Of a stretch of DNA of 64,000 nucleotides, positions 5,505 to 64,000 are shown one piece after another (position 1 is the stretch's first letter; every line of letters starts with the position of its first letter). This DNA is from Hydrolagus colliei (Eukaryota). Below the pieces are notes generated by a model, which was not told the DNA's origin, did no database searches, and saw only the letters and a list, made by a program, of their open reading frames with translations. The translations under genes and the position numbers were made by a program. The stretch lies in contig CM068749.1 of NCBI GenBank assembly GCA_035084275.1, positions 23,126,001-23,190,000 of the forward strand, given 5' to 3'.

Positions 5505-6476
5505 TAGATTCATAGATTCATAGAATTTTACGGCACAAAAGGAGGCCATTCGGCCCATCTAGTCTGTGCCGGCTCTTTGAAAAGAGCGATTCAATCCCAC
5601 TGCCCTGCCCGCTCCCCATAGCCTAATAGACCTGTTCTCCCTAAATGAAGATATAATTCCCTTTTAAAAGTAGTTATCGAATCAGCCTCCACCACCTTTT
5701 CAGGCAATGCATTCCAGATTCGAACAACTCGCTGAGTGAAAAAATTTCTCCTCAGCTCCCCTCTACTTCGCCTTGAAACTATTTTAAATCTGTGACCACG
5801 AGTCACAGATTCGCCCACGAGTGGAAATAGTTTTTCTCTATTTGCCCTGTCGAAACCCCTCATGATCTTATAAACCTCTATTAGGTCTCCCCTCAATCTT
5901 CTCTGCTCCAGAGAGAATAACCCTAGCCTATCTAGCCTCTCCTCATAGCTGAAGTCCCTCAATCCTGGCACCATCCTAGTAAATCTTCTTTGTACCCTTT
6001 CCAAAGTCTTCACATCCTTTCTGTAGTGTGGTGACCAGAATTGAACACAGTATTCCAGCTGAGGCCTCACCAAAGTCTTATAGAGGTTAGTCAGCACTTC
6101 CTAACTTTTGTACTCTATACCCCTATTTATAAAGCCTAGTATCCCATATGCCTTCTTAACAGCCTTGTCTACCTGTCCTGCCACCTTCAACGAGTCACTA
6201 ACACAAATCCCCAGGTCTCTCTGTTCCTTCACACCATTTAAAATTGTACTATCTAGCCTATATTGCCTCCCTTCATTTCTTCTCCCAAAATGCATCACCT
6301 CACACTTCTCTGCATTAAACTTCATCTGCCATGTGTCTGCCCACTTTACCAATTTGTCTATATCCTCTTGCAGATGGCTACTATCCTCCTCACTATTTAC
6401 TATTCTCCCTAACTTAGTGTCATCTGCAAACTTGGAAACTGTACTCCGTACACCCAAGTCCAGATCATTGATGTCT
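5505..6476 (-). mobile_element. CR1-clade LINE, 5'-truncated, young (RT C-terminal part, 3'UTR and (TCTATGAA)n tail)
   Basis: Minus-strand ORFs 6101-6679 and 5591-6097 are in the same frame, split by one TAG at 6101-6103. Translation has CR1 hallmarks INDL..SKFADDTKLG, WQMKFNAEKCEVMHFG, LYKTLVRPQLEYCVQFWSP, LERVQRRFTRM, RRLRGDLIEVYKI. Octamer tail repeat at about 5505-5527. Confidence 0.95.
5591..6473 (-). pseudogene. CR1 ORF2 reverse transcriptase fragment with one nonsense codon
   Basis: FADD catalytic motif; reads YKS*EVLTNLYK across the internal stop; sequence beyond about 6476 is unrelated flank. Confidence 0.9.
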
Positions 6477-7021
6477 AGTCTGCAATCATGCAGCTTGGTT
6501 TTCCAGAAAGGAAATTCTGGTGTCTTACCACAAGGCAAACCAAAGGAACAGATCAGTAACTTGCCGTCTCGTGATATCCAACACAGCCAGTCTAGGCCAA
6601 GACTGGAGTTTGAAGCTGCAGCCCAAATCTGTGTACTCAGGATGCCTTCCTTAAGATTTTTAAGGAGGTTCTGGATCAAAAACTGACTCTATTCCTCCTG
6701 TGAATTGTTATAATAATCTTTAATAATCCTTGCATTTGATAGAGTGCCTTATCACGTCATCGAGGTATTTCAAAGTGCTTATCAGGATATACCGTAATTT
6801 GAATGGCCATTGATGGAATGTTAGAAGCGGAGGGCTGAGATTCAAAGTTGTGGAAGTAATTCAAGACAATCTGATGATAGCATACCTAAAGCTGGTTTGC
6901 CTTCTAAAGATGAACACTACCAGTGAGATTGAATCACTGTATTTATCAGCTTCTTGATACTTTATATATTTACATATATATATCTATATATCTAAATAAT
7001 ATTTTTTTACTCATGTTGCAG

Positions 7022-15780: not shown

Positions 15781-16085
15781 CAACAACAACAATGAATTAC
15801 ATTTTTATAGCACCTTTCACGCCGGGAGGACACCCCAAGGCACTGGACAGTCAGGGATTTGGGTCCGAGCTGGGGTTAGGATCAAGGTGTGATGGAAGGT
15901 AGGAATAGGAGGAAGAGGAAGGTGTTAGACATATGTTGAAGGAGGCAATGAAGGGAGCAAAGTGAAAAAGTTCCAAGGGGTAGGGAGGCTGAAAGCCAAC
16001 CGCCGATGGTGGGGCGGGCTAGGCGGGGGCATGGAGCAAGCCAGAACCTGCTGAGCGGTGGGGAGCGGACAGGTTGATATGGCAG
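15781..16085 (-). mobile_element. L2 LINE 3' end
   Basis: (AAC)n tail, tatagcacctttcacgccgggaggacaccccaagg stem-loop, then purine-rich antisense ORF2 end (ggctgaaagccaaccgccgatggtgg). Confidence 0.75.
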
Positions 16086-16445: not shown

Positions 16446-19374
16446 CCAAATGTAATGAAACTAAATTAAATTTAACTTTGAAAGGGAAAATAAAAGTTTT
16501 GTAAAGGTATATAATTGGACTATGGTCTTGATTGTTGTGGAATACCACGTAGAGCCGAACATAAAATGGCTTTATAAAAATGTTAGGTGGGCTTTTATTG
16601 AATGTTTAATATGTGTTAAAGTAGGGGAGATGTGTTGTATATGGCTAAGGAAAGTGGGTGCTGAAGTGTTAAACTTCAGATGTTTCCTCAGTGTTGACAT
16701 TTAGGGCATCCTGTGGTGTTTCTGGTTTTCCACCTGAATTTTATGACCGGTCCTGGATGGCTTCACAGAGATAAAATTGGATTTGTCAGTTTCCATCAGT
16801 TTCTAAGATCAAATTTTAGTTAACTGGAAATCTCTCAACAACAACAACAAAATGCCACTTGTATAGCGCCTTTCACGTTGGGACGATGTCCCAAGGCACT
16901 GATAACAACTACCTCCACCCTCCCAAAATAAAAAACAGGCAAATGAGGATATTTTTAATAAAACCAACATGTTTGTGTTTCTTTTGAACATGGTGTCTGT
17001 TGCCAGTAGTGTGATGATCAATGTTATTGTACCTTTGAATAGGATTATGATCTTCAGTTCTGTGCAGTACATGCTTCAAACTACTGAGACCCCAAAATTC
17101 TTCCTAGTTTTTATAAGACCATTTGTCCCTTTCTGTTTTCAATTTCGTGACCATTTGTGAGAATGTGTCAGACATTTGGTTACCTCAGAAAATGCGTGTG
17201 ATATGCACTCAGTCATTCTAAAAAGTACCAAGCTTCTGAAAATGACAAAGTAAACAATGTGAAATACAAAAGTTCTAACAATTGAAATAAAATATTATTG
17301 TGCCAATACAAATCTATTGTTTCAAGCAGTAATACATTCTCAATATTCACAGACTCAGTTTTCACATCAGAAGTACTATATGCATTAACCATGCAAGCCA
17401 AAGCCCTAATGAGTAGGTGGTCCTCAACGGACAAACTGCAAGAAGCTTGGCAGATAGTGTTCACAATGCAAACTACGTGACATCAGCTGGTTAACAGCAT
17501 GCAATCTGGGGTCCGTAAGCCTTGGACCTTCCTAACCTGGCGCCTAATACTTCTGGAGTATAGTAAGCAGGGCGCATCCCTCTAGAGACAGAGTGTGTTC
17601 TCAATTCCAGACAAAGAGACATTTGCATAGGTGGCATACATGTGTGAAACTCTCAGCCTGGTTTGGCTACTCTTGAGCACGGTGAAGGATTTGCGTGTTT
17701 GTCAGACACCCGGCTGACTAAAAAATAAGTAGAGTCTTTTAAGATTGATGTAGTGTATGACATCATCTTGAACCCAATTGTTGTTACTGCTTTGTTACTC
17801 CATCCAGCTATGTTTTACAACCGCTGGTGGCCACATTTCCTTAAAGAAACCAGTTTCTATTTTTCAGACAACATAGAATATAATTCAAATTACTTGGCAA
17901 AATGAAAGCCTAAAAGGAAATGTCTTCAAATGTAATTGTTATAAAGTTGCATGCGTTTTTTTGGGGGGCCAAATCCACTTTGAAAGCATTTCTCAAAAAT
18001 TGCAAGGGTTAAAATTTAGGGTTAAACTCATGATTCTTCACAGAGAGTTAATGGAGGGTAAATTGGGGAACAAGTTACTTAAGCTGCTTTCATTCAACCT
18101 AGAGCAGCCGGCTACAAAGATATAGGAAAAAATCGGATGTCCTCATACTTTCTCCTGGTTAGAAAAACACTACAAAATTTGATGGGAAGAGAGAAATAAA
18201 CGATTTTTAAAAATGTGGAGAGCAAATGAATTAGATGTGGGGACAGAGGCAAAAATGAGAGTAAAGGAGGACGAACTATGCCAGAAATATTTAGAAGACT
18301 GCAGGAATGTATGTATCAATTATTTTTGAGTGGTTTTAAATTTACTATTGTGAATTTTAGAGAAAAAGTTTATAGTTAGTTTTACTTCATGATATTTTGC
18401 GTTGAACGTGTGCAGAAAATCGCTTGTGTGTTTCCATTAAAGATGAAGGAAACCCAAAGCCATTTCCCCAAATTGCAGAGGATATTCAGCACCGCAATGG
18501 GTTAATGATGTTTAGGCTACCGATTGTTATTCACAGCTCTGTGTACAATAAGCAATGTTTAAAATAAGTGTCGTGACCGGGACTTCTGTTTTAGCAGCCA
18601 CCAGCACAGGCCCACCAGCAGACTAGAGGTTTGTATTTGACTTCCTGCAGTTTGTGAACCTGGGGGGTGTGGAAGCCCATCCCACTGTCTCCCTGGCTAC
18701 CCAGAGCTATTTTGCTGTGTTATTCAAGTCGTTTGTGGAGTGTGAATCCATTCACCTCACAAATGTGGGAAATAAAAACAGACCCAAGTTTTATTATGAG
18801 TTTATCACCGTCCTGACTGCTTTCAACATTGATTTCCTTTGACGCAAAGCTCTGTTTTCCCATTCAACCAGGGCAGCAATGTTCAATATTTCATTTGAGG
18901 GTGTTAATCGCATTACCATCCTTGACGTTTTACAGATATCATATTATGGCCGCAAATTTGGCAAATTATTGCAGGCATAATGTATAGCTTGTCATCGGCG
19001 TTTAGAGATCTAGATATACTGTGGCTTATCAGGAAAAGCAGTGACTCAGGGTACTTTCCAGAGGCAGTGGAGAGTTGTAAAAAGGAATCTGACTGGCTTG
19101 TCAGCCTCTGAAAGATGTTGTTTGCTCTATCAGCGAAATACAGAACTGATAAAGAGTTACATTTTCCCAATCTGGCTTTAGGTTGAGCAAGAGGTCAACA
19201 AGCAGGCAAGTAATATTTCAAACCAAGCTTTAAAAGGCTGAGTTTTAAATTCTGTGTTGCACACACACTCACAATGCAGTGTGTGCCTTTTAGCCCATAC
19301 AACACCAAATCCACATAGCTCCATGGAGACATTCTCAAAACTTTACCAGGCTGAATTTTGTTTACAAAACCAGG

Positions 19375-22600: not shown

Positions 22601-23519
22601 TGCCAGGCAGTTTTAGTAAAGTGTTCCTCGCTGCTACAGATCACTGCATCACAAGCCTGATGTCAGCTCCAAAATGTACCACAGGAGACTCATTATAAAA
22701 AGCAAATATTATTTCACAGAGAAATGATTTATAGTAAAGAAATATTTTTTTTCTACTTCTTGTATGAATGTTATTTACAGTCTAGGCTTAAGGCAAGTTG
22801 TGGTGATGAGGCATAGCAAAAAGTCTCTTGATTCTGTCTGCCTTTCTCTTATGTTGTCTTGTCTATAAGTTTTTATGGCAGGGTAAATCCAATGTAGCTT
22901 CAGCCTTAGAATATAATGGGAGTGCGAATAGTCTGGTGGAAAATAGCAGTATAACAACTATTGCAAGCAATCATTGGTTCTATCCCAGCATTAAAACAAA
23001 TGAAGTTTATGGCGTGTTATAACGTCAAACTTTGTACAAGTCATTACTGTCAAGTGTAGTGACTGCTTTTTGTCATCAAATGCAGCAGTCCCACAAACAA
23101 CCATGACATTTACATTTGTATAGCACCTTTCACGTCAGGAGGACATCCCAAGACTCTGGGGTGAATAGCCAAGTAAACCGGAGAATAGAGACTGGATAAA
23201 TGATCAGTCAAAATATCCCAAATGTGATATTTGTAAATTGTGCCTACACCAATTGTGACTGAAATTGTAGTATTTGCTAGCAAATTTGCTAAAAATATAA
23301 CTTTCTCATGGTTTTAGCCTTAAGAAAATATATTAAAATTTAAGACTGTGCAAATTATTGGAAAATTCTTAGTTCAGTGGTGGTTTCACACTTTTCTAAA
23401 TGAAGAATAAATGTAACGATTTTCTTTGAAACTGTAAAATCTTAAATTTTAAGATGATGGTTTGATGACGTGAAAAATGTTGGCTCACAGAAGCTGTGAT
23501 ATTTTTACGATTACGTTTA

Positions 23520-30810: not shown

Positions 30811-32831
30811 ACAACAATTTGGCCACAAAAATACAGTCACACCACTTTACAGTGTGTCCTTTACAGTGTTTCCATATTTGAGATCTTGGCCACCTAATAA
30901 GGTGCTATACCAAATGCAAGATTTAGGATTATTATTCTAAATATGGATGAAGGAAGTGGAACCATAATCACTAATGAAATCAAAAGCAGGTTATGATTCA
31001 TGGAATTGTTTTACAGGGAAGAACTTTTAGCTTTTACAGTAAGCTATCAATGAATTAACACAATGAAGATGGGCTTTATTTAAGCACTCAAAAAAGAAAT
31101 GAACAGATTGCTAAACAACTGGGAGCAGAGGGAATATGTTCTTAATGCAGGGACAGGTAGGGAATAGTGGTGGGTGCAATGCATGACAACAATTTGAGCT
31201 AAGTACTCCCATCTTCTCTCATTCTCCTGTGCCATTACCAAAGTATGAAAACTACAACCCATAACAGATGGTTGTTCCCTTTTGTGTCATGACTATTCTT
31301 TTTCTTTTATTTTAACAATATAGTTGTCCTAATTTAAAATGCATTTTCTCGCACCACTTATTTGCTCCCGGAGCCCTGAGCTTAATAATGTGCTGAAATC
31401 ACTGACAGACCTAAAAATGTGCTTTAAACATTAAACAAAAATCACGCAAATGGGAAAAATGTTTAACCCTTAGTTTACTGAGAGCTCTATGGAAACATAT
31501 CACTATTACTCGTGCTCTGACACTGTATACAAACATACATTAAGCAACCGGCAAGTTGACACATCATAACTTAAATTTTCTCTTTTTTTAAAAAAATTTC
31601 ACTTTCTTTAATAGGGGCCCTCCACTTTAGAACCCGACACAATTCACCTTTCTTTTCAGATAGGATGGTTAAATCATTTCATTTGGTGTTAGGTTTATGC
31701 TAGTGTTGCTCTGTAACTTGCTACTGGGAGGTATTTGACAATTTCTCTTTTCCTGTTGAGAAGGCACTCCCCTCTCCATTCCAGTGACCTTATCGAGACT
31801 GGAAGCTCAATATATGGAGAATCACAGGCACAAAGCTATGTCCCCCCATTCAAGTGTTTAAATGCAATTCCTTTCCAGATTAAAAACAAGTAGAATGTTT
31901 CTGTAAGGTCCCAACGGACCACTTTTACTGATATATAAACAGTATGTCCAATGATAATGAAACCTACCCAACAATTTGTGACATGGGATGAAATTACTGT
32001 ACACAGTCCAGGGTTAATAATACATGGTGGCAGGTGGTTGTGTTACACGCTGTTGAACAAGTTTGAAGAATTTAGTCCTTCAGGAATTTTATATCTTTGG
32101 AAAATTTTGATCTGGTATTATTCTGCCCACATGTACTTCATGGTAACTGTGAGAAATCAAAATAATCTTTGCAACAATCTGTTCTTCTGTACTTCAGGCT
32201 TTTACCCGCTTATGTAATGACCCGTCACCCACATGGCAAAATCTTGGAAATGCTTCAGCTTTTTTTTAGAAAGCCAGTACCTGTATATTTTCCCTTTTTG
32301 TTGTGAACCCATGCTGGTGCTTTGGTGTTTCGTTCACATCGAGATGTCAAGATTGCTTTACCGGGTTTTATTAGGTGTCTGCTGTCACACCGTTTGCTTT
32401 CTACTTCATTAAATCTGTAGCAGAGGCTGATAGAGTTGTTACAGGTGGGGTAGGGAGCTATCCACTCTGCAGGAGAGCAGCTCAACAGTTCACCACACTG
32501 TGCATCCCACTTTCAAGTCGGTATTTGAGTTATCTGAAAGGTTTAACTATTTGGTGTCTGGTACAGTGATGGACAGAAAGTACTATATTCCAAAATGGGT
32601 TGTACACATAGCTGCTGGATAACAATGGGAGGTCTACTCATAGAAAATGTTGGCTAATGACTAGATCCATGCATGAGCAATGGTGAGGCCCCACTCACCC
32701 CCGTGTAAGCTGAATTTGAGCAGAATGCATTCCTCAAGGGAATGAGCAAGTTGGGTGACCAGATATCTTCTCCGGCCGATTGGCAAAACCAAAAAAGGAG
32801 ATGTTTCTATCACACATATATCCCAAGGCGT

Positions 32832-32886
32832 AACCGATAAGAACAGATACCGCACTTGATCTGAGCCAAATGGTGGTAGGAAGGAT
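32832..32886 (-). ncRNA. U2 snRNA-like 5' segment (variant gene, pseudogene or SINE head)
   Basis: Reverse complement of 32832-32870 is TTTGGCTCAGATCAAGTGCGGTATCTGTTCTTATCGGTT versus vertebrate U2 nt 16-54 TTTGGCTAAGATCAAGTGTAGTATCTGTTCTTATCAGTT: 35/39 identical. A loose ATC-CTTC start lies at 32886. Confidence 0.85.
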
Positions 32887-32930
32887 GTGTTGATAGGTAG
32901 GAGAAGTAATGTGTTGGCTTGTATAAGGGA

Positions 32931-32950
32931 AATTCAAGTCAGAAGGTTAG
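32931..32950 (-). promoter_or_regulatory. PSE-like snRNA promoter element
   Basis: Minus strand CTAACCTTCTGACTTGAATT; GACTTGAAT ends about 46 nt upstream of the U2-like +1, similar in sequence and position to the human U2 PSE (TCACCGCGACTTGAAT, recalled). Confidence 0.4.
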
Positions 32951-33182: not shown

Positions 33183-33199
33183 GTGCTCTTTGTGTCGAG
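33183..33199 (+). other. Candidate 17-nt microexon
   Basis: ccttctgttttgtttttag|GTGCTCTTTGTGTCGAG|gtaagt: polypyrimidine acceptor and a consensus donor. Confidence 0.4.
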
Positions 33200-33804
33200 G
33201 TAAGTGTCAGCAAGATTCCCTGTCTCTGATGTATGATGACGTTCACAAAAGGGTATTAAAGTCTTGCGATGCCAACAAAAGGGTATTAATGAGATTTATT
33301 GCCCAGTAGATTACCAAGATTTAGCTTACTCAGTGTATATTAATGGAAGAACTGCGAGTTTATAGGAACAGTTTAGTCTGGGGTTGTGACTTTAAAGACA
33401 ATTCTGAGTGCGTGCTTCAACTGATTCATTATGGGATTAGCACACGTAAGTGCTTTAAACAAAAGCAATAGTCTTATTTGCATCTGGTTAACAACAATCT
33501 TGACCTGCTTTGATGAGAACTGATTTGACTTTCCATAATCAGATGAGAGTGTAGTTCATATGAACACAATTTGCATAAACCTGCTGTTATTGACATACAG
33601 CAGATCTCTTCTGAGGGCAAACTTAGTGTAGTCTTAATATCGGTTCTTATTTTCTTGTAACATTTATTTCACACTATTACCAGAGTTCCATTTGAAAGCT
33701 GCACAGTTGCTAGGAGTTATTATTGACCACACATTTTTTCTCCTGCCTCTTTCCTGATATTTCCATATGATATATTTTTGCCTTGATGGTGTTTAAAGCA
33801 GCGA

Positions 33805-35335: not shown

Positions 35336-35690
35336 TAGGTCTCACATACAATCAGATCACTGATGAATATGACTATAAAAATAATCCTTGCATTTGATAT
35401 AGCACTTTTCACATCTTCTAGACGTCTCAAGGCACTTCACAGAATATACTGCACAATTAATTGACTGTATATTTGTGGGCAAAATCGGCAGCCAATTGAG
35501 CACAGCAGCGTCCCACAAATAGTCGTGGAATGCAATGACCGATTTATTAAAGTTTTTTGGGATTGATTATTATTAGGCGTGTGGAGTAAGGAAATTTGTC
35601 CAAGGTTTCACCCTGACCTGGCTGGATTCGAACACAGATCTCACACTTGAAAGGCGAGTGCTCTAACCAGTGAGTTACAGGACTCCACAG
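35336..35690 (-). mobile_element. Full-length SINE family A with extended 3' tail
   Basis: Reverse complement has head GGAGTCCTGTAACTCACTGGTTAGAGC...GTTCGAATCC, body and tail, plus an extension of about 45 nt shared with 9075-9120. Confidence 0.9.
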
Positions 35691-36550
35691 GACTCCAGGC
35701 TATCCATGGGAGAAGCACATATTTTATAAGCCCTAATTCTTTTCTCTTTACCAACATAGCTGATTTCTAGAAATTAGACATGACTTGGTGTTAGGGCATT
35801 TGTTTAGCTGAGCTCCACAAGCATATGTTTGCATGTGCAGATCTCTTTACTTATGCATGGCCCAGGGTATTTCAGCATTGCATGCGGAACAAGCAATTTA
35901 AATGTGGAGCCAGCTAGCATTCTTTACTGCAGGCACCAAATCTAACTGCTGCCTGTTGTGTAACTGAGGCATTAATTACATTGATTTTGTCATCTTTCAA
36001 TTTAAAGACAGTGATATTGCAATAAACTGATAATAATATCAGTGAATGGCTGTAAAGCAAACTTGCTCATTCCAGCATATGGTTGCCCTCTATTGTGCTC
36101 ACTTTAAAATCCTGATGTCTACGATAGTCACGCTACAATGGACCAGACTTAAAACCCAACACAATGATCTGTTGGGCCAACCGGTGCATTTAGCAATGGA
36201 CCAGTGCCAGTGGGTGTGCAACTGATTTGGTGGGCCAGTGAATCCATTCCAACAGCACTGCAATCCTGAGAAGATTCTTGTATAAGCTTTTTACAAACTG
36301 CCTCCAACAAATCCCTTTGTATTTACAGTATGGTAAGTCCAATTTTCATTTCCATTGTGTTGACGGACTGGTGGATTTCACGATGCCTCACTGCCTTTTT
36401 TTTTCTTTATTGACCTCACTGCTGTCAAATTGAAACAGAAACAGAAGTACAATTACGAGCAAGGATCAGTAGCCATAGCCCTAGAAAACAAATCAGTTGT
36501 ACAGAATTCTGTTTGAATAAAATAATAAATTTTTTTCCTCTTTTTTTCAG

Positions 36551-36571
36551 ACCATATTTCTTTATCAAGAT
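36551..36571 (+). other. Candidate 21-nt in-frame microexon
   Basis: tttttttcctctttttttcag|ACCATATTTCTTTATCAAGAT|gtaagt; no stop in any frame. Confidence 0.4.
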
Positions 36572-37680: not shown

Positions 37681-38017
37681 GGAGCTCCTGTGGCTCAGTG
37701 GTTAGAGCACTTGTCTTGCAAGCTGGGGAGACCTGTGTTCGAATCCAGGCAGGTCAGGGCGAAACCTTGGGCAAGTTTCCTTACTCCACATGCCTAATAA
37801 TAATCCCTCCAAAATAACACAATAATAAAATTGGTCATTTCAATCCACGACTGTGTGTGGGACACTGCTATGCGCAATTGGCTGCCGCGATTTGCCCACA
37901 AATATAGACAGTCAATTCACTTTACAGTATATTCTGTGAAGCGCTTTGGGATGTTGATAAGATGTGGAAAGCGCTATATCAAATGCAAGGATTATTATTA
38001 TTATTATTATTATTATT
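37681..38017 (+). mobile_element. Full-length tRNA-derived SINE (young family A) with L2-type tail and (TTA)n
   Basis: A-box TGGCTCAGTGG, B-box GTTCGAATCC, body shared with more than 10 copies in the window, tail AAGCGCTATATCAAATGCAAGG(ATT)n. Confidence 0.92.
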
Positions 38018-38890: not shown

Positions 38891-39341
38891 GGAGCTCCTG
38901 TAGTTCAGTGGTTAGAGCACTCGCCTTACAAGCACGAGACCTGTGTTCGAATCCAGGCAGGTCAGGGCGAAATCATGGGCAAGGTTCCTTACTCCACATG
39001 CCTATAACAACTTTGATTTATATAGTGCCCTCCACGCTGGATGGGGTCTCAGAGCGCTTCACAGTAGCGGATCCCGGGACCGAGCCAGGGGCAGGGGCAG
39101 AAAGGTGACCAAAGGCGTGGTTGAAGAGAAAGGTCTTTATCTGTCAAAACAAATCACAATAATAAAAATTGGTCATTTCAATCCACGACTGTTTGTGGAG
39201 ACACTGCTGTGCGCAATTGGCTGCCACGTTTTGCCCACAAATATACAGTCAATTCACTTTGCAGTATATTCTGTGAAGTGCTTTGTGACGTCGATAAGAT
39301 GTGAAAAGCACTGTATCAAATGCAAGGATTATTATTATTAT
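38891..39341 (+). mobile_element. Full-length SINE family A carrying an antisense L2 insertion
   Basis: Same head, body and tail as 37681-38017, with about 130 extra nt at 39006-39138. Confidence 0.9.
39006..39138 (-). mobile_element. L2 LINE 3'-end fragment nested in a SINE
   Basis: aacaactttgatttatatagtgccctccacgctggatggggtctcagagcgct is related to 42510-42565; ggtgaccaaaggcgtggttgaagag is related to 42346-42370. Confidence 0.75.
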
Positions 39342-42216: not shown

Positions 42217-42372
42217 AGCAACAACAACAAATTGCATTTATACAGCGCCCTTCATGTAGGGAGGACGTCCCAAGGTGCTGGATAGTCAAAGGTTTGCACC
42301 TGAACTGGGGGCTGAAGTCGAGAGGGGTGGAAGGCAGGTGAGAGGATGACCAAAGGCACAGTCAAAGAGGAA
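42217..42372 (-). mobile_element. L2 LINE 3' end
   Basis: (AAC)n + gcgcccttcatgtagggaggacgtcccaaggtgctggatagtca, the same family as 15781. Confidence 0.75.
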
Positions 42373-47595: not shown

Positions 47596-48933
47596 GTATG
47601 GGAGTAATGATTACCCGGTCCCCTATCCCAGCAGATCTGGGAGTAATGATTGGTAAATTTACCAAATCTTTGTGGGCGAGAACGTTGCATCCTCTATCGG
47701 TATGTAAATTTGTGGACCATGCTGGTGTGAGTTTATGGCTTACACCGCCAGAGTTCATAAATTTAGGAAATTCAGAAATTCAGAAAAAATAGGATTACGT
47801 TATTGTCAGTGATACAGTCACTATCAGGATATCTAGGGGAGTGCAAACTTAGCACAGGTGGGTGCACAATGAGCTTAGTCTAGCTAAAGCTTTCCCAGTG
47901 TGAAGACCATCATCATTTAACCCTCCCCAATCCCATGTATCATTATAAATTTTGCCATGCAAACAAACAATTTTCTGATACACAGAATGAGGACCTTGTT
48001 GTGTATCAAGGACTGACAGCTGTGGACAGGTTGAGAAGCAACAACAACAAAATTACATTTATAGAGCGCCTTTCACGTTGCGAGGACGTCCCAAGATTCT
48101 CATTTTAAGATAGATCCAAATTGTGGACGAGATTGGGTGCTGATCTTCCCACTACCATCTAGGCTGAGGCTAAAGAATACATTGTTCTGCGAGCAGCCAA
48201 AGACCTTCATGTTCTCTTGGTACACGTCAACGCCAGCACCTTGCTGGGAAGCTGGGGTTCCTGACAACGCCAGAGCTTTAAACTGTAACTCATGTTGTGT
48301 TTCTCTGCCGCGTAATTCAAATGAATTTTTCTCTGTCAATAGTTTAGAGGTTAATTTCCCAAAACCTTTACATTTAATCCTGTGAACTGGCTAATAGAGA
48401 GGAGATTTTAAAACCAGTGCGATGGGGGTGGGGGGGACACACAATTTGAATTTCAAGCTGTATGCAAGCAGTTTCCAACTTTCTCACTGACCGGAATGCT
48501 TAAGAAGGTACACTCTCGCAAGCCTTTTCCCTTTGGCAAGAGAAGTCGTGACAGCTGAAATACTGAAGGAATAAAGTTTAATGTTGTGTGGAAGGGTTTT
48601 TCTTTGGTGGTAATGCACAAAAGGTAATTGAGAGCGGCTATTCTGGTGTAATGTACAGCTCGGGGCTGCAGGGGTTGTGTCTCCACAAAGGGTCTCCATT
48701 GTACTCTGTCTGCAGTTGCTCAGGTTACTGGCTGTATTGTTCCTGCAATTTGTTCAAACAGTGTCTTAAAGGAATCTGATAGACCGAGTCATGACACCAC
48801 ACTTAGGAAAGCTGTCAGCTGCCAGAAAAGAGTGATGATTTACTGGCTGTGAGGATGGCGATTCATGCTACTGCCTCGCACTGATTGCAGCATTGTCACT
48901 GGGAAACAAAAAACCAAGAAAGAGGGAGTTTGA

Positions 48934-61200: not shown

Positions 61201-63744
61201 TTGTTGTTGATTAGTGGGGCAAATCCACACATTTCCCATGATGTAGACCTTTGCAAGACAGTTGGACCACAAGCAGGACCACACAATGCCTCAGGCTGTT
61301 ATTGTGCCATTGGCCACTGGGAAGTGCAGGAAAGAAGCTCGCCGAGCACTGTGTCTGATGTTCCCTCTCTACTGGTGAGCAAATGTACGGCCCAGGTTCT
61401 ACACCTCCTCAAGGTTGAATAAGATCAAGGACTCAGCAGCGAGTGGAGTATCACAGCAACAAATCATAATTCTTCATGATTCAAATCAACTAATATTGCT
61501 GCTCGAGTTTGCCTTTTGTTTATTTAAGTCCTGAATAAAGGCAGGATATTTATATGGGGTTTGGGAAGAGACCTCTGTTGACTACTAAGGGTAGCCCATG
61601 GCTGTGTGTGTGCACAGTGGTCTGAATGGTATCCTTCAGTGCCGTAACGTGCTATGACTACGAGGGAAGAAGGTTGAAGTGCATTTCGAACATGATATTG
61701 TATTAATCTGGCTTTGGGGTGTGCAGTGTTAAAAACATTTCTAACTATGTCTCTTCAAGAATGAAACAGATTGCCGACCAGTCTGCCTTTAACAGGTCGT
61801 ATCCATCAAAAACACTTACAGTGTCCATAAATACAAAACCACTGATAGCTTTTTAAATGTATCGGCTGCTGCCTGTTTCAAATGAGACATCAGTTGCTAA
61901 CCAGAATTCCTGAACGCTATGTGGGGAAATGCTTCTCTGTCTTTCTTAGCATTTTTTATTAAAACCCTTCTCCTCAAATCCGATTGATTCAGATGGCCGC
62001 ACTTGTGCCTTAATTTGATTTGAATTTTTGTTGTTGTTCACGGGGAAGCCCAGGGGGCAGGTCAAGTTACCACATATCAGTTTGAAATGAAGCAGTTTTT
62101 CAACAGAATTCAGGATCTAAACGGGATAAGGCAAAACAATTCAAATTGGTTCAAGAATTAAAACAGGCAGTGAGTACTCCATACGGTTCATGTTTGATTG
62201 TATCACTGAACGAAGAAGCAAATTGCTCAGTGTTGGAATGAAGTGAACATCCCAAACATATCTTGGGAGATTGGTGCTATCAAGTTTTAGGCAGTTAAAT
62301 GCACTTTTAGAACTCGTATTTTTGTGGGAACAGAGTGGTGAATAATATACTATACATCAACAACAAAATTACATTTCTATAGCGCCTTTCACGTCGGGAG
62401 GATGTCCCAAGACACTACATCTTTATGTGAGTTGTATTACAAACATTACTGAACAAAACATTGTCTAATTTAGTTTATGCTTGACAGTACAGTCATACTG
62501 CATTTCACCACATTGATATAGTGTTGGTAGTGTTGAATCTGGCCCTGGATGACTCTCAGGCTGGAATATGAACCGTAGTGCACCAAGAGTGAACGTCTCG
62601 CCAGCTAGTGGCTTCTTATCATAGGATTGCCAATCCAATGAGTATTATATCAATTAGAGGCAGTTTTTTCTGCTGCGTAAATATGGATACTAAATATTGG
62701 TTGGGCTGAGATCATCATCCAAACCTATTTCACTTAGTATTCTTACTGCTCCCAGAGTGGAGGCTTTCATTCTATTAACTGGCGCTACATATAACTCAGG
62801 TTTCAGAGAAGACACTAGTGTTCTACTCTACCGCACTGTTCCATTCCCCTTACGTGTTCTGATCCAGCATTGATATTTTAATAGCCACCTAGGAGTGTGG
62901 GTTTCAGAAGACCTCATAAACCACAAGCTGGGTTTGATTTGTTTATTGGATTCCTGAAAATGGATTGCTGCATTTAAACTAGTTCTGCTCTTTGTAATAT
63001 GCAAATTTTGTATTTTGTCCACCCACGAAATACTTGCTGAAGAAACTTGGAGGCTACAGAGTGTTGTGATTGTAGTTGTCTCGAACTGCGGGAAAAACAT
63101 TTGGAGTGTACTTGTGAGCATAGCACGCAATTCAGACCGTAGTAATACGATATCAATGATTCTGAAACTGCAGTGAAATCTTACCATGTGATTCAAACTG
63201 CAGCGATATGGGCTTTTCTGTGATTGTTTGTTACTGGCAGACAGGAGGCTGGTGCGTATTTATTCCACTTTGATCTCGGATCCACAGTGAGATAATCGAG
63301 AACTGTGTCAAAGTAGTAGTCGTCATGAATTAATATCAGAATGGTTCAGAAGATGGGTACCTACCTGACTTTTTTTTTTACACTGCAGTTATTTATTTGT
63401 AGGTGATTGTTTTTCGCCTTGCAGTCATTTTATTTTTATTATGGGTCACAATAATAAGAATATAATTCTATTCTCCCGAACAAAGATATAGCAAAGTAAG
63501 CACTGGCATCAGGTATCTAATGGGATATACAACTATGGAATGGTTGCAATTTCAGAATCCCCTTGTTTTAACATCTATATTGATATATTTTGTTTGTACT
63601 GATAACACACGTATGTCGTGAAAATCAGTGCCTTATCAGCTAGCATCCACACTGATAACCAGCGTTTGCGCTGATTTTCAGTATCTATATTGATCGGAAG
63701 CATCTGCACTGATCACTCATCTACAGACTGAGAGCCATCATTCT

Positions 63745-64000
63745 GAGTCCTGCAGCTCAGTGGTTAGAGCATTCGCCTTACAAGTGGGAGACATGGGTTC
63801 AATTCCAGGCAGCGCAAATCCTTGGGCAAGTTTCCTTCCTCCACACGCCTAATAATAATCCATCCAAAAAGCAATAATAAATTGGTCATTTCAATACACG
63901 ACTGTTTGTGGGGACACTGCCGTGCACAATTGGCTGCCGCGTTTCACCCATAAATGTACAGTCAATTCACTTAACAGTATATTCTGTGAAGCGCTTTGAG
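63745..64000 (+). mobile_element. SINE family A (runs off the window end)
   Basis: gagtcctgcagctcagtggttagagc...ggttcaattcc head followed by the conserved body. Confidence 0.9.

Follow-up and report, generated by a model that had tools for sequence, protein, structure and literature searches.

Among the described systems closest to the locus reported here are the variant U2 snRNAs of human, of which those with changed recognition sequences can be expressed and enter snRNPs, and whose 5′ halves are generally better kept (PMC8457000). The Hydrolagus colliei copy resembles the human variants and pseudogenes U2-17P, U2-37P, U2-63P, U2-70P and RNU2-2 in being a dispersed single locus with a better-kept 5′ half and changes in its recognition sequence. 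Unlike it, however, U2-17P, U2-37P, U2-63P and U2-70P carry one recognition change each and are found in snRNPs (PMC8457000), and only 8 differences separate RNU2-2 from RNU2-1 (PMC12165851), whereas the Hydrolagus copy is about 40% diverged outside its core and lacks the Sm consensus.

Other comparisons come from mobile sequences and from fishes. Tailless U2 retropseudogenes (PMC5322556) likewise show a strong match limited to the 5′ part and carry no A tail, but the Hydrolagus copy has no TSD, is degenerate at its extreme 5′ end and is flanked by gene-like traces. The SINEU elements of crocodilians and the U2-targeting Keno retrotransposon (PMC4494074) also place U2-derived sequence at dispersed positions; the Hydrolagus copy differs from these in occurring once in the 64-kb window (the whole stretch of DNA analysed, 64,000 nucleotides), in having no poly(A) tail and an uninterrupted core, and in adjoining no retrotransposon ORF. 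The embryogenesis-specific snRNA variants of zebrafish (10.1101/858944) are, similarly, divergent fish snRNA paralogues, yet they are expressed and retain their mRNA-binding sites. Among the literature matches listed, which comprised titles and the starts of abstracts and included few subscription papers, no chondrichthyan U2 variant is described.

Set against U2 snRNA itself (RF00004), the locus retains 35 of 39 positions at nt 16-54, the U6 helix Ia/Ib strands and the BSL stem, and it follows the rough U2 order of stems IIa and IIb, U-run and stem III. It falls below the gathering score of the family, however, and GUAGUA, helix II, stem I, loop IIa/IIc, the Sm site and stem-loop IV are lost or unrecognisable. 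It is a further degenerate U2 copy, one that fails as a functional U2, and we regard it, from its sequence, as probably a DNA-duplicated pseudogene that does nothing. The consequence of that reading is small: it adds another decayed snRNA copy, though from a lineage in which snRNA genes have received little study. Were the core conserved and expressed, it would represent a natural U2 derivative combining A35G, which is dominant-pathogenic in human RNU2-2, with U34C, and would let one test in nature whether a U2-like RNA that has a second branch-site code, or a U2-derived regulator that works without Sm proteins, can persist in vertebrates.

U2 homology and layout of the locus

The minus strand is U2-like: RF00004 matches 32750-32886 (-) with 31 bits, at an E-value of 0.021 for the whole window, 5.3e-4 for 1.6 kb searched and 8.3e-5 for 251 nt, and it is the sole credible Rfam match there. 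The first-pass annotation, which had proposed a variant U2 gene at this place, had named an Infernal search with RF00004 as the way to check it. That search does return U2 but misses the gathering score of the family, which is 46; at 31 bits against the 46 needed, the locus has no match in a gathering-threshold Rfam scan. Homology to U2 extends over nt 1-68, and most of the features that define a functional U2 have been lost. Identities to the U2 rows of PMC5322556 Table S10, ten of which are vertebrate, are counts made by eye.

The features discussed below are as follows.

32871-32886, minus strand: U2 nt 1-15 in degenerate form, covering the helix II strand and the stem I 5′ arm, with the putative +1 at 32886 (Rfam alignment)
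32832-32870, minus strand: well-kept U2 core nt 16-54, with the U6 helix Ib/Ia strands, the BSL and the 5′ arm of stem IIa (35/39 by eye)
32848-32853, minus strand: altered branch-point recognition sequence GCGGUA, with U34C and A35G (sequence, Rfam alignment)
32819-32831, minus strand: replaced loop IIa, followed by GATA closing stem IIa (Rfam alignment, fold prediction)
32801-32817, minus strand: stem IIb-like hairpin (Rfam alignment, MFE fold)
32789-32798, minus strand: U-run close to where the Sm site would lie, lacking the required purine-A (motif search)
32739-32773, minus strand: relic of stem-loop III, aligned in register without gaps, 15 nt past the U-run (by-eye diagonal)
32677-32683, minus strand: CCATTGC, a possible but doubtful echo of loop IV, about 35 nt off register (sequence only)
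32633-32648, minus strand: 3′-box-like stretch (two published consensuses)
32930-32949, minus strand: PSE relic, -63 to -44 (published PSE consensus)
33183-33199, plus strand: candidate 17-nt host microexon (rough splice-signal scan)

The locus is single within the 64-kb window, where no second U2-like copy is found. A 29-nt match at 18520-18547 (E 0.006) was considered as a second copy and set aside; it covers the downstream flank only, in an alignment with no wider homology. A prokaryotic origin or contamination was likewise discarded, the 32-nt core having no exact match in the genome contig collection. For the 3′ half, Rfam yields chance matches to other RNA families only, with E-values of at least 2.9, and an ORF of 90 codons at 32661-32933 (-), for which no start codon was demanded, is taken to be due to chance.

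The core and its altered recognition sequence

The core at 32870-32832 (-) agrees with U2 nt 16-54 at 35 of 39 positions when counted by eye on the vertebrate rows in Table S10 of PMC5322556, a recount that reproduces the figure of the first-pass annotation, and at 32 of 35 positions over nt 16-50 in the Rfam alignment. The four substitutions are A23C, U34C, A35G and A51G. As had also been reported, GUAGUA, which occupies nt 33-38 of U2 (PMC12165851), reads GCGGUA in the Rfam alignment, while the U6-pairing residues GCU and GAUC are unaltered and nt 23 is changed. The same alignment shows both U6 helix Ia/Ib strands and the stem of the BSL (nt 25-45 of U2; PMC12424890) to be identical to U2. 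A35G is deleterious in other organisms: its yeast equivalent leaves 0-10% of splicing, and n.35A>G in human RNU2-2 is a dominant disease allele (PMC12165851). All four core changes convert A/T to G/C and two of them yield CpG; the locus holds 6 CpG in 200 nt, a count reached by 5-7% of windows (93rd-95th percentile).

How would the altered bases be presented in an RNA? In fold predictions, which are for naked RNA, the first three bases of GCGGUA are unpaired with a probability of 0.02-0.08, the variant bases GCG pairing with 32830-32828 at 0.83-0.90, and an alternative 7-bp helix between the recognition sequence and the loop IIa region reaches a predicted probability of 0.68-0.90. The altered recognition bases are thus predicted to be buried in a hairpin and hence not free to read a branch site. 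The true BSL also requires proteins for its formation (PMC13019295).

The hairpin concerned, at 32858-32824 (-), is imperfect, and three of the core substitutions, those at nt 34, 35 and 51, make G-C pairs within it. Random genomic 9-mers placed at the loop IIa position equal its energy in 67 of 2000 trials, and permutations of the same bases do so in 214 of 2000, for a hairpin that was noticed after the fact. The substitutions might stem from mutation templated by the arms of an inverted repeat; the statistics are weak.

Structural domains outside the core

Upstream of the core, nt 1-15 agree at 8 of 15 positions with the Rfam consensus, with one insertion, and at 9 of 15 with the vertebrate rows by eye. 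The U2/U6 helix II strand lies in nt 1-13 (PMC12424890), and its UCGCU at r.2-6 (PMC12165851) is changed here to UCCUU. In the Rfam alignment stem I keeps four of its seven pairs; the other three are broken and no change is compensatory.

Downstream, four outer pairs of stem IIa are possible in the Rfam alignment, yet their predicted probability is 0.0; the GATA that would close the stem lies at the expected distance, as it does by chance at 1.5% of positions. The stem IIb-like hairpin has five of seven pairs in the Rfam alignment and four pairs in the MFE fold, loop IIa is replaced, and the IIc partner strand that normally follows IIb is missing. The first-pass annotation had not mentioned that nt 1-15 and stem I are damaged, nor that loop IIa and its IIc partner are. 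From cow to rice, Table S10 of PMC5322556 shows no variation at nt 9-15, in loop IIa or the IIc strand, at the Sm-site A or in GUAGUA; every one of these is altered at the Hydrolagus colliei locus.

The U-run at 32789-32798 and its want of an A, both noted previously, are borne out by the sequence. The run falls in the expected window, where TTTTTGR occurs by chance within 30 nt in 1.1% of cases, and a search of 260 nt for the Sm consensus RAU3-6GR (PMC2582628) is negative. Past the run, the echoes of stem III and loop IV that had been suggested fare unequally. Stem III stands as an ungapped diagonal at 32773-32739, with 21 of 35 identities by eye to the dog row, the best of the rows compared, and 17 of 35 to anole; in simulations with random partners, 21 of 35 has a P of 0.019 when 41 diagonals are considered and of 0.065 when all are. 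Its lower stem keeps five of eight pairs, none compensated, at a predicted probability of 0. The covariance model leaves both stem-loops III and IV unaligned, Rfam is blank for the 3′ half alone, and the supposed loop IV is about 35 nt off register.

Nor is the region predicted to fold unusually well. Its 227 nt give a z of +0.45, with 134 of 200 shuffles equally stable, and nine sub-domain folds range from -1.14 to +0.92, with unusual stability nowhere. The U2 fold is not kept, on these predictions, and on most tests the locus is not a working U2.

These losses bear directly on the new pairing specificity suggested in the first-pass annotation, taken here to mean a variant U2 snRNP whose GCGGUA would read YCGAC or YUGAC in place of YUAAC and might serve a class of introns or the nearby microexon. 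The intact helix Ia/Ib strands and BSL stem would suit such an RNA, both changes are transitions that should still permit pairing with YUGAC, and splicing of complementary reporters is possible with U2 engineered to carry a changed recognition sequence (PMC13019295). However, the RNA would lack an Sm consensus, helix II, stem I and stems IIa/IIc are disrupted, loop IV is unrecognisable, the recognition bases are predicted to be sequestered, and A35G is deleterious (PMC12165851). Moreover, YCGAC or YUGAY occurs within 70 nt upstream of none of the three candidate microexons, a stretch from which the canonical YUAAY is also absent at all three. The new pairing specificity thus finds no backing, and we consider a variant snRNP very improbable. 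Since several parts that U2 needs are gone, a dead relic is likelier than a splicing RNA with a new target.

Putative promoter and 3′ box traces

The gene-like flanks were compared with three expectations, a PSE at about -55, a DSE octamer at about -220 and a 3′ box 9-19 nt past the RNA end. GACTTGAAT ends at -46, just as had been stated. The PSE-like element to which it was assigned is rightly placed but weaker than it had seemed, agreeing at 7 of 12 positions in the register first proposed, with one of five in its TCACC half, when measured against a published consensus (PMC5493778). The best ungapped agreement is 8/12, a level reached in 13% of random 10-position windows, and a 2-nt insertion is needed to attain 10/12 (as found at 105 of 3000 random sites, P 0.035), the TCACC-like half lying 2 nt off register relative to the ACTTGAAT half.

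The 9-mer at -54 to -46, which may equal the human U2 PSE, occurs twice in 128 kb; given this rarity, it would be the best single sign of DNA duplication if it does correspond to the human element. A second PSE-like word, GACTTGAA, lies at 32519-32510 (-), 367 nt past the U2-like +1, and no Rfam RNA follows it, which indicates that chance can produce words of this kind. An octamer DSE is absent at -220, in agreement with the first-pass annotation, the nearest approximation being 7/8 at -140; ATTTGCAT occurs at 33476 and 33569 (about -590 and -683).

At the other end, a 3′-box-like stretch that had been overlooked lies at 32648-32633 (-), agreeing at 9 of 12 positions (at 32647) and at 8 of 11 with two consensuses; the chance of this is 12-58% depending on the window. 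It presumably resembles the own element of the human U2 gene, and it would imply an RNA of about 220 nt.

Each of these flank traces is weak singly and was picked after inspection. Taken together, PSE, U-run and 3′ box recur at gene spacing at 114 of 127,160 anchor positions, and the addition of the GATA closing stem IIa reduces this to 8 of 127,160, with thresholds set afterwards at the observed values and the anchors of the locus itself included. A Fisher combination of the traces gives 4.6e-4, a post hoc value for which one input p was set by judgement.

Origin of the copy

On either side of the core, weak traces point to a copy of gene length and not to a 40-nt fragment. As the first-pass annotation had supposed, a diverged, DNA-duplicated U2 gene copy is the likelier origin, on the strength of the joint traces (8/127,160), the absence of a TSD beyond chance and the absence of an A tail, and from these sequence traces we judge a gene-length, DNA-duplicated origin likely. 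No TSD is found with its right copy at nt 50-75. Further out the best is 8 nt, which is equalled or beaten at 21 of 60 random sites; old TSDs can decay. The 8-nt direct repeat that flanks the locus (32919-32912 and 32655-32648, minus strand) is at background level for a TSD. As regards the retrocopy signature, the 5′ end is degenerate and weak homology runs past nt 54.

The copy might instead be a short captured or retroposed U2 fragment (approximately nt 13-54) in an intron, the remainder being unrelated DNA that resembles U2 by chance. This would explain the sharp drop of identity at both ends, would accord with an Rfam search that is blank for the 3′ half alone and with a PSE and 3′ box that are not significant ungapped, and has precedent in 3′-truncated U2 retrocopies, a known class (PMC5322556, PMC2912911). 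On the other side stand the missing TSD at nt 50-75, an outer repeat no better than that at 21 of 60 random sites, the absent A tail, and the joint flank traces with their post hoc Fisher value. In addition, PMC5322556 reports tailless U2 copies only from therians and a lizard (anole), no fish having been screened there. We therefore hold a captured fragment to be rather unlikely.

Uneven decay and the question of constraint

We infer the gene-length origin of the copy, its silence and the cause of its uneven decay along the following lines. A U2 snRNA gene would have been copied long ago at the DNA level, together with its promoter and 3′ box, into an intron and antisense to the host, and the copy would then have decayed. 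It would form no working snRNP, with the PSE halves off register, the DSE absent, the Sm site lost and the U2 fold gone, and the changes in the recognition sequence would be post-mortem substitutions and not a new specificity. The better-kept core may owe its state to a mixture of three causes: a former phase under partial constraint, conversion of a short tract by true U2 genes, and ascertainment, in that only relics with a well-kept stretch are noticed.

The unevenness itself counts against a plain pseudogene. The core, at 35/39, differs from both the 5′ end at 9/15 (p 0.02) and stem III at 21/35 (p 0.006), four or fewer changes in 39 would have a P of 4e-4 at a neutral divergence of 35%, and the best-kept stretch is the catalytically engaged one, with its U6 and intron contacts. 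The uniform A/T to G/C direction of the core changes, the CpG they yield and the existence of expressed human U2 variants with altered recognition sequences (PMC8457000) weigh on the same side. Such a pattern is also compatible with past constraint, a conversion tract or templated mutation.

The same pattern keeps alive, as an unlikely reading of the sequence, a constrained U2-derived RNA without an Sm site. In its broadest form, to which we attach a similarly small likelihood, the locus would be a U2 paralogue of long standing in chondrichthyans, with an snRNA promoter still driving it but devoid of the Sm site and of the 3′ protein-binding domain, whose U6-pairing and BSL core would be under selection and whose GCGGUA would be gated by the hairpin; it might act as a non-Sm regulatory RNA or, less likely, carry a new branch-site code. 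No such RNA in cartilaginous fish is described among the literature matches listed, which cover titles and abstract starts and for the most part leave subscription papers outside.

More specifically, a constrained gene transcribed from the PSE might yield an Sm-less RNA of about 220 nt that is no spliceosomal U2 but, at low levels, a decoy for U6 or SF3 or a regulator of either. It would keep the U6-pairing strands and the BSL and hide its branch-recognition bases in the new predicted hairpin; we think this proposal decidedly unlikely. Conservation centred on nt 16-54, a PSE relic at the right distance together with a 3′-box-like stretch, and three core changes making G-C pairs in one hairpin (67/2000 for random 9-mers) would all be expected of such an RNA. 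That hairpin, however, is equalled in 214 of 2000 permutations and was picked out only once seen, the PSE halves are off register and the DSE is absent, and the whole fold is no more stable than those of shuffles. Without an Sm ring, such an RNA is also expected to be unstable, which tells further against it. The decayed, DNA-duplicated pseudogene remains the reading we prefer.

Host intron and neighbouring elements

The window has 39% GC and consists of intron-like DNA with tRNA-headed repeats. The candidate microexon at 33183-33199 (+), 17 nt long, has the top score among the 32 exon candidates listed by a rough splice scan, and the distance of about 300 nt given in the first-pass annotation is confirmed at 297 nt from the +1. 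On sequence grounds it is best regarded as a neighbour of the U2-like locus, with no link implied.

Such a link is nonetheless at the heart of a further alternative, in which the strand that matters is that of the host pre-mRNA, whose 39 nt complementary to U2 nt 16-54 would bind true U2 snRNP and tune inclusion of the microexon. The orientation does make the intron complementary to U2, the best exon candidate lies nearby, with the U2-binding stretch about 310 nt upstream of it, and the preservation of nt 16-54 alone would be accounted for. But three of the four changes would be mismatches to true U2 and one a wobble, the bulged A is missing at the branch position, and the microexon is itself only a candidate. 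We consider such a U2-binding element exceedingly unlikely.

Three candidate microexons with GTAAGT-containing donors are present on the plus strand, at 33183-33199 (17 nt), 36329-36332 (4 nt) and 36551-36571 (21 nt). Their lengths sum to 42 nt, so that together they would keep the frame, and an exon of 4 nt would be unusual. Just downstream of the 17-nt candidate, CAAAAGGGTATTAA occurs twice, 30 nt apart, within 33240-33290 (+), possibly as an intronic regulatory repeat.

Several repeat families populate the window. The tRNA-like heads of SINEs lie at 35614-35683, 37687-37753, 38897-38961 and 63746-63817, with tails that end in ATT repeats, and two Rfam tRNA matches above the gathering score are best read as such SINE heads and not as tRNA genes. 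A broken reverse-transcriptase fragment of a CR1-type LINE occupies 5591-6688 (-); among its named matches, those in Chiloscyllium (60% over 99%) and Callorhinchus (63% over 73%) stand above those in birds and turtles (48-56%), in keeping with a cartilaginous fish but no proof of one. A second dispersed family of short repeats (D8, D9), with CAA repeats at the start, is found at 15782-15875, 16838-16904, 23095-23159, 42217-42310, 48038-48102 and 62354-62418.
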